Assembly (NCBI GenBank): GCA_963805085.1
Contig: CAWDTA010000002.1
Location: forward strand, 1,952,001-2,016,000
DNA length: 64,000 nucleotides
Direction: 5' to 3'
DNA from: an uncultured Veillonellaceae bacterium
Lineage (GTDB): Bacteria; Bacillota; Negativicutes; JARBTT01
Position numbers and translations under genes: made by a program. Below, piece after piece: positions 37,394 through 41,834 of this stretch (position 1 is its first letter; each line of letters starts with the position of its first letter). The notes under the pieces were generated by a model that saw nothing but the letters and a program-made list of their open reading frames with translations, made no database searches and had not been told where the DNA came from.

Positions 37394-38338
37394 ATGACAG
37401 AACAAAACAACAAAAATTATGCCCTAGGTGCTCCTGCTGCTTATCAACTTGCTGATGTAGTAAAAACAACACCACAATTCGAATCGATTACTCCAAGATG
37501 GCTAACAAAATTATTTGATTGGAAGCCGCTGGAGACAGGAGTGTTTAGATTAAATAAAGTAAAAGAGGGGCAAACACCGCTAGATGCGCTTTGCAGGCAG
37601 AAAGATAATGAAAATATACCGGAAGGTTTTGTAGATTATGAGCCAGAACCTCGTGAATACACATTAAAATCCATATCTTCGGTAATCAATTATCACACTC
37701 GTATATCCGACTTGTATAGCAGCCCTTATGACCAAATTACAGAACAACTTCGCTTAGGTATTGAATGTGTTAAGGAAAGACAAGAAAGCGAGCTTATTAA
37801 CAATGCTGATTATGGACTTCTAAAAAATATTGCTAATTCCCAGAGGATTCAAACGCGCAGTGGTTATCCTACTCCAGATGATATGGACGAACTGATTTCA
37901 AAAGTATGGAAAGAACCTTCCTTTTTTCTTGCCCATCCAAGGGCAATCGCAGCCTTTGGTCGTGAATGTACAAAACGTGGAGTGCCTCCAGCAACTGTAA
38001 CTTTATTCGGTGCACAGTTTTTAACATGGAGAGGTATTCCAATTGTTCCTACCGATAAACTATTCGTTGATGGTCAAAAAAAGCCGAAGGATAAAGCTGG
38101 CAAAACGAATATCCTTCTTGTCCGCACCGGAGAAAAGAAGCAGGGAGTTATTGGACTTTATAAGGCAGGGCTTCCAGGAGAACAGTCCAGAGGATTATCT
38201 GTAAGGTTCATGGGTATCGATAAAACTGGAATAGCATCCTATATTCTGTCTTTATATTGTTCTGTCGCTATTTTAGTTGATGACGCTCTTGCAGTGCTTG
38301 AGAATGTCGATGTAGGAAATTATTATGAGTATAAATAA
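37394..38338 (+). CDS. Family 2A encapsulin shell protein (SrpI-like)
   Basis: AL...AA.QLA...KT.PQ...ITPRWL, FVDYE..PREY.L, SDLYSSPYDQ..EQLRL, KERQESELINN.DYGLL, PTPDDMDELI, AFGRECT.RGVPP. Confidence 0.93.
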   Translation: MTEQNNKNYALGAPAAYQLADVVKTTPQFESITPRWLTKLFDWKPLETGVFRLNKVKEGQTPLDALCRQKDNENIPEGFVDYEPEPREYTLKSISSVINYHTRISDLYSSPYDQITEQLRLGIECVKERQESELINNADYGLLKNIANSQRIQTRSGYPTPDDMDELISKVWKEPSFFLAHPRAIAAFGRECTKRGVPPATVTLFGAQFLTWRGIPIVPTDKLFVDGQKKPKDKAGKTNILLVRTGEKKQGVIGLYKAGLPGEQSRGLSVRFMGIDKTGIASYILSLYCSVAILVDDALAVLENVDVGNYYEYK

Positions 38339-39962
38339 TAGTAATAGTATAAATTCTGGATTTGATACTACGGGACTACCAGTAGATTCTTTTCAGTTTA
38401 GTAGTCATCAGCCCCTAGATACTTCTGTACTAGCAGCGATGGCAAGTGTGTATTTCCCTGAGTTTGGCAATTCGGAAGCTCCATCGTCACTACAGTCAGT
38501 GGAGCAAACAGTGCAATCAGAGAATGGAGTTTCAGTGGTGGATTTCATAAACGCAATTCCAGTTGCAATGAAAAACATTACTAGCGTTGAAGGTCAAGCA
38601 ATAAGACAAAGTCAATCCATGCCTTTTTGTTTTTTGGAAGAAGCAAGATCCATCTTTACGAAGATTGAAAATACGGTAGGCAATCAAAGTAAGAATGCAT
38701 CAGAAAAACTTGTTAGCCCTAAACTCCATGTATATTGCAATCCGTTTGATGTGACGGCTATTCGTAAGGATTTCCCCATATTAACGGAGAAGGTAAATGG
38801 GAAAAATCTAATCTGGTTTGATAATGCGGCGACAACACAAAAACCGAAAAGTGTAATTGAGCGCTTAAGCAATTTTTATCAGCATGAAAACTCTAACATA
38901 CATAGAGCGGCACATACCTTAGCGGCACGTGCAACTGATGCGTATGAGGAAGCAAGAGATAAAGTAAGAATGTTTCTGAATGCTTCTTCCTCTAAAGAAA
39001 TTGTGTTTGTCCGTGGTGCAACAGAAGCGATTAATCTGGTTGCCCAAAGTTGGGGGAAATACAATCTGCAGAAAGATGACGAAGTCATAGTAAGTTTACT
39101 AGAACATCACGCTAATATTGTTCCTTGGCAAATGATTTGTTTTGAAACAGGAGCCAAGCTTCGTGTTATTCCTGTTGATGAAACGGGTCAGATTCTTTTG
39201 CAGGAATACGAAAAGCTTCTCAATCCTAAAACTAAAATAGTTGCTGTTACTCATGTTTCCAATACACTAGGTACGGTTAGTCCAGTAGGGGAAATCGTAA
39301 AGATTGCGCATAGATATGGGGCAAAAGTGTTAATCGATGGCGCTCAGGCGGTTTCTCATATGAAGGTAGATGTCCAGGCTCTGGACTGCGATTTTTATGT
39401 CTTTTCTGGACACAAGATTTTTGCGCCTACAGGCATAGGCGTCTTATATGGAAAATCTGAAATTTTGAACGCCATGCATCCTTACCACGGGGGCGGAAAT
39501 ATGATAGCAGATGTTACCATTGAAAAAACGGTATATAAAGATCCTCCTAACAGGTTTGAGGCTGGAACAGGAAATATTGCAGATGCTGTCGGTCTTGGTG
39601 CAGCTATCGATTATGTAAATTCCATAGGTATTGAAAATATCAATACCTATGAGAATCGTTTGCTAGAATACGGAATGAATAGTCTGCAAGGTGTACCAGG
39701 CTTACGACTTATTGGTACGGCAAGAGAAAAAGCCAGCGTTATGTCTTTTGTCATTGACGGTTTCACGCCAGAAGAAATTGGCAATACACTGAGCGAAGAA
39801 GGAATCGCTGTTCGTTCAGGACATCATTGTGCCCAGCCGATTTTAAGAAGATTCGGATTGGAAGCTACTGTACGACCTTCACTTGCCTTTTATAATACCT
39901 ATGAAGAAATCGATATACTGGTCTCAGTACTTTGCAAGTTGAAAAAAAGTCGTCTACCTTAA
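38325..39962 (+). CDS. SufS-type cysteine desulfurase with N-terminal encapsulin cargo-loading extension
   Basis: ~140 aa low-complexity N-terminus with LAAMASVYF, then DNAATTQKP, FSGHK and RSGHHCAQP. Overlaps the encapsulin stop. Confidence 0.93.
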   Translation: MSINNSNSINSGFDTTGLPVDSFQFSSHQPLDTSVLAAMASVYFPEFGNSEAPSSLQSVEQTVQSENGVSVVDFINAIPVAMKNITSVEGQAIRQSQSMPFCFLEEARSIFTKIENTVGNQSKNASEKLVSPKLHVYCNPFDVTAIRKDFPILTEKVNGKNLIWFDNAATTQKPKSVIERLSNFYQHENSNIHRAAHTLAARATDAYEEARDKVRMFLNASSSKEIVFVRGATEAINLVAQSWGKYNLQKDDEVIVSLLEHHANIVPWQMICFETGAKLRVIPVDETGQILLQEYEKLLNPKTKIVAVTHVSNTLGTVSPVGEIVKIAHRYGAKVLIDGAQAVSHMKVDVQALDCDFYVFSGHKIFAPTGIGVLYGKSEILNAMHPYHGGGNMIADVTIEKTVYKDPPNRFEAGTGNIADAVGLGAAIDYVNSIGIENINTYENRLLEYGMNSLQGVPGLRLIGTAREKASVMSFVIDGFTPEEIGNTLSEEGIAVRSGHHCAQPILRRFGLEATVRPSLAFYNTYEEIDILVSVLCKLKKSRLP

Positions 39963-40171
39963 TATACTACCCTAATAGCTACAGATAACAATGGCATTAA
40001 AAAAAGATGACTCCTGTTCAGTACAGAATCATCTTCTTAATATTGCATAGCCTTTTTTTATTCTCCGTAACAAAGTGTACACATTAAATATAAAACGAGG
40101 TCTATGGACGTAAAAAAATCCGCTAACCTCGCTTTTTCTATATAAAAATTCATATTTCGATTTACTTTTGC

Positions 40172-40199
40172 TTGCAATCCCCAACAAATGGATTATAAT
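40172..40199 (+). promoter_or_regulatory. SigA-like promoter for the structured leader
   Basis: TTGCAA-16 nt-TATAAT. Confidence 0.6.
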
Positions 40200-40216
40200 A
40201 AAAATAGGTGGAAATT

Positions 40217-40310
40217 AAAAAAGTCGCCGTGTCCTGAGAGTGGTGAGACACTCTGAGGCACGAGCAGGTGAACCAGCACCTACACGTAACAGCTAGCTGT
40301 CTACGACGAC
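40217..40310 (-). ncRNA. Putative ~94 nt four-way-junction antisense sRNA
   Basis: GUCGU|CGUAGACAG-CUAG-CUGUUACG|U|GUAGGUG-CUGGUU-CACCUGC|U|CGUGCCUCAGAGUG-UCUCAC-CACUCUCAGGACACG|GCGAC|UUUUUU. G-U pairs form on this strand only. Confidence 0.7.
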
Positions 40311-40315
40311 AATTT

Positions 40316-40344
40316 ATTATACCGTGCTTTTCCCTTGAAAACAA
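40316..40344 (-). promoter_or_regulatory. SigA-like promoter of the antisense sRNA
   Basis: TTGTTT-17 nt-TATAAT on the minus strand; predicted +1 is about G40310. Confidence 0.65.
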
Positions 40345-40421
40345 GGGGGATGTGTGTTCGGCATAATACGATTGAAGTTTTAGCAGAGGCTTAGCGTCTG
40401 CATGCAATCAAGATGACGTAT

Positions 40422-40463
40422 AGCGCATGTGTAGGTTGAATAAAACCTCGCATGTGCTTTTTT
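40422..40463 (+). terminator. Attenuator-like terminator inside the leader
   Basis: AGCGCATGTG-T-AGGTT..AACCT-CGCATGTGCT ending in a T run. G-U pairs on the plus strand. Confidence 0.65.
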
Positions 40464-40555
40464 GATTTCCCCTGAAACAAACTGTATGTTGGTTTTTTCT
40501 ATCTGCATCAGCGGATAGAAGAAACCACGTGCAGAATGATGAAGGGGGATATAAA

Positions 40556-40711
40556 TTGGTAACAGTACAGGGTAGTAAAAAGCTATGGGCAAGGTATCGC
40601 ACCAGCGTGTGGCGAGGAAGCCTCCTCGCCACAACCAAGGGGAGAGGTTCGTTCTATTTACAAGGGACAAGATATGTTTTTTGGGAAAACAGAGGTTCTG
40701 TAAATGTATAG
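40556..40711 (+). CDS. Putative 51-aa leader ORF coupled to the next gene
   Basis: AGGGGG RBS shortly before TTG. The stop overlaps the next start (ATGTATAG). Confidence 0.4.
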   Translation: MVTVQGSKKLWARYRTSVWRGSLLATTKGRGSFYLQGTRYVFWENRGSVNV

Positions 40712-41027
40712 AATCTATAGAACACCAAAAGCCACGATTATTGCTCAGGAAGTAGAGAACACTGATTTTACAGTTAAATTGCTTACAGATTTAGATTGCA
40801 AAGAATATGTGATGATCAAGTGGCAAGATGCAGTTAATATATATGATTTTTCGCTAGTTGGTCAGGTCAATGAAATAGCTGACGAAATTTCATTAGAAGA
40901 GTTTAGAGAAATTACCTATGCGAAAATATATAAGGAATCATTAGAGGAGGAAATCAAAGCCCCAAAGATGGATTATCCAAAGTTCGACTGGAAATGTTTT
41001 GCAGAAAAAGGCTCAACTAGCAGCTGA
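40704..41027 (+). CDS. Acidic hypothetical protein (107 aa)
   Basis: Open ORF with GAGG RBS; no recognised family. Confidence 0.65.
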   Translation: MYRIYRTPKATIIAQEVENTDFTVKLLTDLDCKEYVMIKWQDAVNIYDFSLVGQVNEIADEISLEEFREITYAKIYKESLEEEIKAPKMDYPKFDWKCFAEKGSTSS

Positions 41028-41136
41028 GATACCTGCCAGTTGAGCCTTAAAAATATCAAAATCTCTGCTTTGCCCTCTTTACGACCAAAGAAAACGGGAC
41101 TCAGAGCAGGCCTATTATGATGTTCCATTACAAACA

Positions 41137-41185
41137 AAACTGATGAAGGCAAGAGATTAAAGTTCTCTTGCCTTCATCAATTTTG
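41137..41185. terminator. Terminator hairpin overlapping the stop of the minus-strand gene
   Basis: tgatgaaggcaagaga / tctcttgccttcatca. Confidence 0.7.
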
Positions 41186-41834
41186 TTATAATTTCTTGTT
41201 CTAAAATCCCAGAGGACGGAACCTTTTGCCAAGTTTTATTTATTTTTTCTTCAAAATTTATATCCATGTGAAATAGTTGAAACGTATTAAATTCCTCACT
41301 TGTAAAAAACAGTACGGTTTTTAAACGGATAGATGAAGGTTGATTATTTGTTACAATATAATCGAGAAGATGGGGGTTTTCGAGATTAAGTTCTCCAGAA
41401 GTATAAAGAATTCCCCAATCTGTATCCAGTGATTTTAGGGGGAGAATCTTTTTCAATTCAAGATCAGATTGGATAGAATCGTAAACTTTTTGTATCGTAA
41501 GGGAATTTGCTGGCAGTAAAAAAATAGATTGCTCAGTTGAACGTTGAAGTTGCTTTGGTGTGATGAGACAATTATAGATTTCAGTATCTTTTTTTACGAG
41601 TTCACTTGCGCTATAAGGGGCATCTTGATATAAAAGTTCTTTCGTTGTATCAAGAAGTTGATCACCAGGACGAATCCCAGCGTAGAATGCTGGTCCGAAG
41701 AGATTAACGGATATAACAGTTAAAGTATCATTTACGGCGATACCTTTGCTAAAAGGCAGGGTCGCTCTAGCAAAGCAGATAGATGAAAGAGAAAGTAAAA
41801 TAAATAAAATAATACAAATTTTTTTCAGATACAT
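41157..41834 (-). CDS. Exported hypothetical protein with a PDZ-like segment
   Basis: Signal peptide; V..V..FGPAFYAGIRPGDQLL resembles a PDZ motif. Confidence 0.6.
   Translation of the reverse strand: MYLKKICIILFILLSLSSICFARATLPFSKGIAVNDTLTVISVNLFGPAFYAGIRPGDQLLDTTKELLYQDAPYSASELVKKDTEIYNCLITPKQLQRSTEQSIFLLPANSLTIQKVYDSIQSDLELKKILPLKSLDTDWGILYTSGELNLENPHLLDYIVTNNQPSSIRLKTVLFFTSEEFNTFQLFHMDINFEEKINKTWQKVPSSGILEQEIITKLMKAREL

Follow-up and report, generated by a model that had tools for sequence, protein, structure and literature searches.

A Multicopy Cassette Probably Controlled by a Four-Way-Junction Antisense RNA in an Uncultured Veillonellaceae Bacterium

Introduction

What kind of locus places two convergent promoters and a series of strong RNA hairpins in front of a gene with hardly any relatives? 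The question is raised by positions 40142-41050 of a 64,000-nucleotide (nt) stretch of DNA from an uncultured Veillonellaceae bacterium (GenBank assembly GCA_963805085.1, contig CAWDTA010000002.1, positions 1,952,001 to 2,016,000 of the forward strand). This whole stretch is called the window below, and coordinates are those of the window unless a contig or another locus is named. A first-pass annotation, made from the letters of this one locus, had proposed an antisense RNA and an attenuator that together control an orphan gene, and it had been unable to place the arrangement in any family. Sequence inspection located every feature of the locus at the coordinates collected in Table 1, and comparison with related loci then lent support to the proposal. 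The locus is probably one paralogue of an undescribed cassette that is controlled by a cis-encoded antisense RNA and works like a type I toxin-antitoxin locus. Comparison of copies gives good support to its predicted parts, namely the small RNA, the attenuator, and a ribosome-binding site hidden in a stem. The sequence of steps in the switch and a toxic effect of the protein product are inferred, with a mechanism modeled from RNA folding.

A Candidate Small RNA Gene on the Minus Strand

At the center of the cassette is a candidate small RNA gene that is read from the minus strand, within the leader of the plus-strand transcript. The minus-strand RNA (40310-40217) folds into a four-way junction with the loops CUAG, CUGGUU, and UCUCAC, and an 8-base-pair (bp) closing helix is followed by U6. 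Folding of the minus strand of 40211-40316 gave -40.2 kcal/mol (z = -4.9), which none of 200 shuffled sequences equaled. In this copy, folding of the complementary plus strand gave almost as good a value (z = -4.6), and a single sequence therefore cannot decide the strand. These near-equal values are what favors an alternative in which function is confined to the plus-strand leader, an attenuator of the riboswitch-like or protein-binding sort, and the minus promoter and its RNA are incidental.

The strand was decided by an alignment of 42 loci (L001-L043 without L016, a duplicate of L001). The junction comprises 33 pairs, and 98.4% of the 1386 cells of the alignment form standard pairs. Seven pairs have changed on both sides, five of them in helix P4. 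None of 500 shuffles reached the observed covariation score or percentage paired, and sliding the partners by 1-3 columns left 30-50% pairing. For a slightly larger version of the junction fold, 1442 of 1469 cells are canonical on the minus strand versus 1280 on the plus strand, which leaves 27 noncanonical cells versus 189. G-U pairs fill 171 cells when the minus strand is read and 9 when the plus strand is read. Three such pairs, which exist only on the minus strand, are nearly invariant there (41 or 42 of the 42 copies). Pairing across the 42 copies and the bias in G-U pairs together indicate that the junction is a minus-strand RNA, and the first-pass claim of a ~94-nt RNA with G-U pairs that work only on this strand is supported.

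Promoter conservation was assessed in 127 instances, 42 from L001-L043 and 85 from L044-L148, after instances too near the end of a locus had been dropped; the 85 had been found with a pattern that excludes promoters. The minus-strand -10 element TATAAT is invariant in all 42 aligned copies and present in 126 of the 127 instances, with a -35 element TTGNNN lying 17-18 nt upstream of it in 125. The consensus scan did not list this promoter because its -35 element matches at only three of six positions. On the plus strand, a promoter of the form TTGC[ACT]A, spacer, TANNNT precedes the conserved 5′ motif of the leader in 105 of 127 instances, and in the window it would start an RNA near 40206. 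Both convergent promoters of the first-pass annotation are thus present and conserved. The retention of the minus promoter in 125 of 127 instances, the strand bias of the noncanonical cells and invariant G-U pairs, and the absence of any Rfam riboswitch or leader match make a purely plus-strand leader very unlikely. We conclude that a conserved minus-strand RNA gene with its own promoter sits inside the leader and is predicted to be antisense to the mRNA.

Rfam returned nothing at gathering score in the whole window. At E values up to 10, the region 40200-40560 gave only chance microRNA-like matches on plain hairpins. The element itself had no match in six other loci, where the only hit was an unrelated fluoride riboswitch in L039 (810-872, minus strand; 41.2 bits, above gathering score), ~100 nt downstream of the cargo open reading frame (ORF) of a Sporomusa-type cassette. 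A gene resembling tRNA or tmRNA was ruled out, with ARAGORN reporting zero genes in the window, as was a large noncoding RNA of the OLE, GOLLD, or ROOL type, for which Rfam gave no match. A literature search that left subscription journals largely outside its reach found no description of the element and no paper on the family DUF6809, which appears below. The first-pass expectation of a system without a placeable family is supported by this lack of an Rfam match.

A Predicted Attenuator and a Predicted Hidden Ribosome-Binding Site in the Leader

The plus-strand leader ends at two small genes, ORF1 (51 codons) and ORF2 (107 codons), the second of which is referred to here as the cargo. The leader (40205-40710) is strongly structured (z = -9.8), and its fold contains both the attenuator hairpin and the long stem that follows it. 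It had been described as ~500 nt long, which holds if the distance is counted to ORF2; the distance to ORF1 is ~350 nt. The reported overlap of the ORF1 stop with the ORF2 start was confirmed at 8 nt.

An intrinsic terminator is present upstream of the Shine-Dalgarno sequence (SD) on the mRNA strand. A simple terminator scan missed this attenuator, whose stem has a bulge. The plus-strand form is the more stable one in all 62 distinct hairpins, by a mean of 6.5 kcal/mol with identical hairpins collapsed, and 125 G-U pairs are found on the plus strand versus 8 on the minus strand. The hairpin occurs in the minimum-energy fold of 114 out of 114 instances. Both its greater stability and its G-U bias indicate that the attenuator belongs to the plus strand, the reverse of the junction, in agreement with the plus-strand terminator proposed earlier.

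A competing structure appears when the leader is cut short. In the window leader folded only to 40440 or 40447, the segment CACCUACACGU (40277-40287) takes the attenuator 5′ arm, AUGUGUAGGU (40427-40436), as its pairing partner. In folds that include the 3′ arm, the terminator outcompetes this antiterminator. Among leaders truncated after the 5′ arm of the terminator, the antiterminator was recovered in 83 of 116 instances despite spacings of 100-300 nt. The segment 40277-40287 is therefore proposed as a preemptor, in the sense of a sequence that would otherwise hold the attenuator 5′ arm.

The leader also appears to govern access of the ribosome to ORF1. Its 5′ end, AGGUGGAAAUU-A(n)-G, has its complement in C-U(n)-AAUUUCC, a tract made up of the attenuator U run and the sequence that pairs with the SD (anti-SD). 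This 5′ end was paired to the tail in the minimum-energy fold of all 114 read-through leaders. The lengths of the A run and the U run agree in 35 of 41 instances, and the agreeing classes are 7/7, 6/6, 5/5, and 8/8; L037 also agrees by eye (3 A with 3 U), where the script counted 4/5 as an artifact of its regular expression. Both main run-length classes occur within one genus. The run lengths thus point to at least four coordinated changes between sites 250-400 nt apart. The anti-SD is paired with a G-rich partner in 110 of 119 instances, which agrees with the long stem that the first-pass annotation described as burying an AGGGGG ribosome-binding site. CCCC is matched with GGGG in 80 of 88 cases, with no pairing in the remaining 8, and all 23 cases of CCUCC are matched with GGAGG. 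In 76 of the 119, the start of an ORF of 35 codons or more lies no farther than 20 nt from the partner. A scan for the partner with 9-mers did equally well on a shuffled control, and folding was used instead. The free minimum-energy fold of the window leader leaves the SD unpaired, and the ensemble probability of its being unpaired is 0.18-0.69. Blocking the stretch covered by the small RNA (40217-40310) led to a paired SD (unpaired 0-0.21). These models suggest that the small RNA may both promote termination and close the ribosome-binding site.

The following sequence of events would account for these predictions. The small RNA would meet the complementary loops of its own leader through a loop-loop contact and then pair along ~95 nt. 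This pairing would remove the preemptor (40277-40287) that otherwise holds the 5′ arm of the attenuator, and with the preemptor removed the terminator would form and transcription would stop at 40463. On transcripts that have already read through, the same pairing would break the helix between the 5′ end and the U run with the anti-SD, and the freed anti-SD would cover the SD of ORF1. ORF2 would be translated by coupling to ORF1. When the small RNA is scarce, read-through would occur, the SD would be open, and the cargo would be made.

Two further observations concern the leader. In the hairpin at 40329-40350, both sides of the stem change between clades by eye (CCCTTG/CAAGGG to CGCTTG/CAAGCG). 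At 40363-40371, most other copies in the genome carry TGGTATAAT, a perfect extended -10 element on the plus strand inside the leader, where the present copy has CGGCATAAT. A promoter at this position would yield a ~90-nt plus-strand RNA that ends at the attenuator. By eye, the extended -10 element is not kept in the distant locus L014.

A Repeated Module with Copy-Specific Loops

The first-pass annotation treated the element as a single locus. The element is real, and it is one copy of a repeated module. BLAST with a wider query found at least 13 near-full copies of 820-990 bp in the same genome, and a 911-bp stretch recurs in the genome search. These copies are 77-94% identical to the copy in the window and up to 96% identical to one another; BLAST also found pieces at two contig ends and several fragments. 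Homology between copies ends near 40085-40142 on the left and 41008-41060 on the right, and the flanks beyond are unrelated. A hairpin like the one at 40096-40137 precedes 5 of the 13 copies, and the other 8 have a different A/T-rich inverted repeat at that place. At the right boundary, the hairpin at 41008-41048 has its U run on the minus strand in this copy, and several other copies have U runs on both sides. In three relatives searched for the empty site, the two flanks were either on separate contigs or at a distance of 19 kb from each other.

For the leader taken by itself (40160-40480), the genome contains 14 full matches and 2 partial ones. It is present in 41 of 401 sampled genomes of the class and in 17 of 110 genera, this genome included, and most of the genomes that carry it are 4-6 Mb in size. 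Scanning a single genome per species with an exact pattern gave at least 105 loci, and the genera among the matches listed include Sporomusa, Pelosinus, Propionispira, Propionispora, Anaerospora, Desulfosporosinus, and Desulfitobacterium. The last two belong to another class, and the whole layout is visible in their loci. The homologs and the covariation for which the first-pass annotation had proposed a search were thus both found, the latter with strand-specific G-U pairs. The module is multicopy and has spread horizontally.

Dispersal of this kind brings to mind a nonautonomous mobile repeat resembling a miniature inverted-repeat transposable element (MITE), whose structures would serve transposition and not gene control. 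The many dispersed copies with unrelated flanks, some of them at contig ends, are what such a repeat would leave behind. The alignment of the ends revealed no terminal inverted repeats or target duplications, in a search that was not exhaustive. At 77-96% identity, the copies fall short of being nearly the same, the module is equipped with promoters, a terminator, an SD, and in-register open frames, and its cargo is exchanged while the leader is kept. A MITE-like origin of the structures is thus highly improbable.

Three other sites in the genome hold copies or fragments of the module. On contig 2, a truncated copy (1478969-1479135) consists of only the plus promoter and a degenerate small RNA gene with nothing downstream, and it may be an orphan antisense gene or a remnant. 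On contig 5, one full cassette and at least five ORF2-like fragments lie within 35 kb (~19.6-54.3 kb), a cluster that may be a graveyard of cassettes or a hotspot. Also on contig 2, a copy at 798856-801351 is split just after the attenuator U run by a group II intron (Rfam group-II-D1D4-4, 81.7 bits) whose own ORF has an RVT_1 domain (E = 3.7e-34). The sequence of L026 is altered at the same point after the attenuator. Sites that follow terminator hairpins are homing targets of some bacterial group II introns. If this intron homes in that way, its position fits an attenuator that is a real terminator motif.

Alignment of the copies within the genome revealed a leader that is almost invariant apart from the P3 and P4 hairpin loops, which vary from copy to copy. 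Over 14 copies, with one degenerate truncated copy left out, the per-site diversity is 0.43 in the P4 loop and 0.45 in the P3 loop versus 0.024 in the rest of the small RNA, and the combination of the two loops is unique in all 14. In the set of 13 near-full copies, the most similar pairs have 4-8 differences in their 12-13 loop positions; the same pairs are 3-7% different at all other positions of the module and 1-6% different at third codon positions of ORF2. The binomial P for the seven closest pairs ranges from 2e-4 to 6e-9 per pair, to be read with caution given the lack of independence among the pairs. Loop sequences have changed much faster than ORF2 third positions, our proxy for silent change. 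Either the loops have been selected to differ, or they have been kept distinct while gene conversion homogenizes the rest. Such divergence is expected if the loops make the first contact between small RNA and leader and cross-talk between copies is disfavored. We also considered the loops as targets of a diversity-generating retroelement and rejected this idea, for which no formal test was made; variation in the loops affects every base type, and the surroundings contain no such element.

Interchangeable Cargo

ORF1 is best read as a translated leader frame whose product is of little importance, given how its frame is used across copies. Of the 13 copies in the genome, 12 retain both the frame and the overlapping stop, one of these 12 with a 42-nt in-frame deletion, and one copy has ORF1 fused to ORF2. 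Pelosinus-type copies have another open frame at this place, which indicates that the ORF1 product is not conserved. ORF2 is intact (at least 91 codons) in 11 of the 13 copies, and its first ~80 residues are conserved across families. Neither ORF had a credible match in Pfam, PHROG, NCBIfam, or PADLOC, and Pfam gave none at E values up to 1. The 107-residue protein had been called an orphan, and the label stands. Its relatives number 14 in 5.8 billion proteins, all hypothetical and one from a Massilibacillus sp. record, and a profile search of 1.8 billion representatives gave 7 clusters. An AlphaFold2 model of ORF2 (predicted local distance difference test score of 72) contains six strands and a long helix; Foldseek found nothing below E = 1 for this model in the PDB, and a search of the ESM Atlas gave unnamed clusters with a best score of 0.80, which we treat as a lead only. 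The ratios of nonsynonymous to synonymous change (dN/dS) are 0.58 for ORF1 and 0.56 for ORF2, in a test that does not discriminate since off-frame controls gave 0.56-1.12.

What connects the cassette to toxins is the cargo found elsewhere. Behind the same leader, L014 carries a SymE_toxin gene (PF08845, E = 5e-11), and several more were recognized by eye in other loci. DUF6809 genes occupy this place in L031 (E = 3.8e-24) and, with weaker matches, in four other loci. Small orphan ORFs of at least four further kinds are found behind the leader in other genomes. The 93-residue cargo of L041 has no significant similarity to ORF2 (E = 0.28). These comparisons show a cargo that is interchangeable behind a leader that is kept. 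SymE-type cassettes are followed by a conserved 71-residue hydrophobic ORF without a Pfam family (L014 561-776, minus strand; also L029 and L033-L036). That the cargo of the present copy may harm the cell is a guess by analogy, made because SymE-type cargo sits behind the same leader in other genomes; this is its only link to toxicity, and an indirect one.

The same RNA control could serve a cargo that is not a toxin, such as harmless small proteins (e.g., stress, sporulation, or phage-related ones) that need tight control copy by copy. The resemblance of ORF2 to no toxin or defense protein would fit this alternative, as would its fast evolution and the fact that most cargo types are orphans or DUF6809. 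We nevertheless consider a nontoxic cargo rather unlikely. SymE-family toxin genes do occur behind the same leader, and the cassette has several traits typical of toxin loci, being doubly repressed, insulated by terminators, and present in many dispersed, partly decayed copies whose loops are copy-specific.

The exchange of cargo also bears on a type III-like alternative, where the protein product would be neutralized through binding to a structured RNA. The order of promoter, structured RNA, terminator, and toxin gene recalls ToxIN-type loci. In the present cassette, the structured RNA is encoded on the opposite strand and has no tandem repeats, and a single RNA would need to bind unrelated proteins. 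We assign very little probability to this possibility.

Features of the Locus and Its Surroundings

Table 1. Positions of the elements of the cassette in the window
Feature	Position	Strand	Basis or remark
Possible upstream insulating terminator hairpin, then U run	40096-40137	+	Left flank of module; read from sequence
Plus promoter, TTGCAA-16-TATAAT	40172-40199	+	Consensus scan, 10 of 12 matches
Leader 5′ end, AGGUGGAAAUU-A6-G, an SD mimic	40206-40223	+	Predicted partner is attenuator U run and anti-SD
Candidate antisense small RNA, ~94 nt, four-way junction P1-P4, ends in U6	40217-40310	-	Fold and 42-copy comparison
Hypervariable P4 loop (plus-strand coordinates)	40243-40248	-	Diversity among 14 copies in the genome
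Hypervariable P3 loop (plus-strand coordinates)	40271-40276	-	Diversity among 14 copies in the genome
Proposed preemptor, CACCUACACGU, complement of P3 5′ arm	40277-40287	+	Pairs with attenuator 5′ arm (40427-40436) in truncated folds
Minus promoter, TTGTTT-17-TATAAT	40316-40344	-	-10 is complement of 40316-40321, -35 is complement of 40339-40344
Leader hairpin overlapping minus -35	40329-40350	+	Scan and folds
Predicted attenuator, intrinsic terminator hairpin and U6	40423-40463	+	Stem 40423-40457, U6 40458-40463; folds
Long stem, anti-SD UUUCCCCU (40466-40473) predicted to pair with SD AGGGGGA (40543-40549)	40464-40549	+	Folds
ORF1, 51 amino acids, TTG start	40556-40711	+	Stop (40709-40711) overlaps ORF2 start by 8 nt
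ORF2, 107-amino acid acidic orphan protein, cargo	40704-41027	+	Open reading frame
3′-End module hairpin	41008-41048		Inner part listed by scan as minus-strand terminator; conserved at right boundary in copy alignment

No rep, conjugation, or phage gene is found among the genes that flank the locus, as the first-pass annotation had stated. Directly upstream, at 37394-39962, is a type 2A encapsulin shell gene (SrpI-like, E = 2.6e-102), which is followed by a cysteine desulfurase gene with a long N-terminal extension (Aminotran_5, E = 2.1e-150). By their sequences these two are an encapsulin-cargo pair that is unrelated to the cassette. On the other side, a strong two-way terminator with a 16-20 bp stem (41137-41183) lies between the cassette and a convergent gene of 225 codons (41157-41834), which has only a weak PDZ-like match.

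Discussion

Comparison across genomes has taken this locus well beyond what a single copy could reveal, adding the multicopy horizontal spread, the leader that stands before SymE-family genes elsewhere, and the copy-specific loops. We continue to regard an antisense-controlled cassette of the type I toxin-antitoxin kind as the probable answer to the question raised at the outset, and a number of points weigh against it. Both RNAs are predictions from the sequence. The terminator of the small RNA is unusual in that it would consist of the closing helix of the junction followed by U5-6, and one clade has 4-6 extra bases between that helix and the U run. The antiterminator is missing from the minimum-energy fold in 33 of the 116 truncated instances, and the preemptor and its partner are invariant, so their pairing has no support from covariation. 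In the free-leader ensemble the SD is only partly open (0.18-0.69). All of the folds are thermodynamic models that ignore kinetics and proteins. Gene conversion of everything except the loops would give the same loop pattern, and the interdependence of the closest pairs counts here as well. The cargo raises its own difficulties in that ORF2 is truncated in 2 of 13 copies, its dN/dS of 0.56 is no lower than that of one off-frame control, and the protein is acidic, soluble, and unlike any toxin.

A more far-reaching reading, which we put forward tentatively and hold to be possible but short of probable, is that the module is an unrecognized, horizontally spreading platform. In such a platform, a junction RNA would act on both termination and ribosome access, its kissing loops would have been diverged by selection, and unrelated toxin-like genes would be plugged in behind it. 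Each of a dozen or more cassettes in a cell would obey its own RNA alone. If so, no earlier superfamily of type I toxin-antitoxin systems would have been delimited by the RNA and not the toxin, and the SymE-family toxins of Gram-positive bacteria would gain the RNA partner that they have been missing.

Discovery of type I toxin-antitoxin loci usually starts from the toxin, and these loci have been thought narrow in range. Defining a family by a conserved RNA control region instead of a toxin offers a new way to find such loci. Here the control region brings together SymE-type genes and several small, unknown proteins from two classes of Firmicutes. It also presents an uncommon combination, in which antisense-driven termination, mainly a feature of plasmid copy control, would be joined to a three-part switch of ribosome access. 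With 14 matched RNA pairs in one genome and specificity that seemingly resides in ~12 bases, cross-talk, addiction, and the evolution of RNA-RNA specificity become directly testable. The pairs are also a possible source of orthogonal RNA regulators for anaerobic Firmicutes.

Comparison with Known Systems

Antisense attenuation is best known from the rep genes of plasmids such as pT181, pIP501, and pAMbeta1. The cassette resembles these systems in having a predicted countertranscript from within the leader and an intrinsic terminator that precedes the SD. A preemptor that would vie for the terminator's 5′ arm is predicted in 83 of 116 truncated folds, both partners being invariant. Antisense-RNA-mediated attenuation is a known general mechanism (PMC4374534). 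The present locus departs from the plasmid examples in several respects. It has no rep gene or plasmid context and exists as many chromosomal copies, its RNA is a four-way junction, and a translational layer appears to be added in the form of the switch between 5′ end, anti-SD, and SD.

In hok/sok (mok) of plasmid R1, an antisense RNA acts against a 5′ leader, an overlapping leader frame is coupled to the toxin gene, and long-range pairing of the mRNA 5′ end governs translatability. All three traits, the antisense RNA against the leader, the coupled overlapping leader frame, and the long-range pairing of the 5′ end, have predicted counterparts in the cassette. The cassette differs in that its cargo is unrelated to the hok/sok toxin, its long-range pairing uses the attenuator tail and anti-SD instead of the mRNA 3′ end, a terminator lies inside the leader, and Rfam gives no match.

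The Ibs/Sib pairs of E. coli and the plasmid pairs CopA/CopT and RNA I/RNA II are kept apart by a few variable recognition bases. Likewise, the paralogous pairs in this genome would be told apart by a few bases, here in two hairpin loops. The RNAs and toxins differ from those of Ibs/Sib and the incompatibility loops, and 14 copies share one genome. The excess of loop change over silent sites was measured here and is not taken from the Ibs/Sib literature. Another system with two short recognition elements is c4-icd-ant of phages P1 and P7, in which a small RNA controls a leader ORF coupled to the downstream gene. A small RNA with two recognition elements and a small leader ORF coupled to the next gene describe the cassette as well. 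The c4 RNA is cut from the same transcript and acts in the sense orientation on downstream sites; this origin and mode of action, together with the phage context, set it apart from the present RNA, and the Rfam C4 families gave no match.

The closest parallel in cargo is SymE/SymR. SymR overlaps the ribosome-binding site and start codon of symE in E. coli (PMC4147584), and SymE is larger and less hydrophobic than typical type I toxins (PMC4147584). The cassette likewise has a predicted cis-encoded antisense RNA against the 5′ part of the mRNA, homologous leaders elsewhere carry SymE_toxin genes (PF08845), and the cargo here is also larger and less hydrophobic. The two arrangements differ in that the antisense RNA of the cassette would lie ~250 nt upstream of the SD with a terminator in between, and thus overlaps neither ribosome-binding site nor start codon. 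ORF1 and ORF2 of the window are also not SymE (no Pfam match at E up to 1), and Rfam has no match. With type I toxin-antitoxin systems in general, the cassette shares a conserved minus-strand RNA gene that is predicted from sequence complementarity to pair with the mRNA leader. Since the cassette has no Rfam match and no rep gene and its antisense site is distant from the SD, we place it as a variant of the antisense-controlled toxin-antitoxin kind that stands outside the named families.

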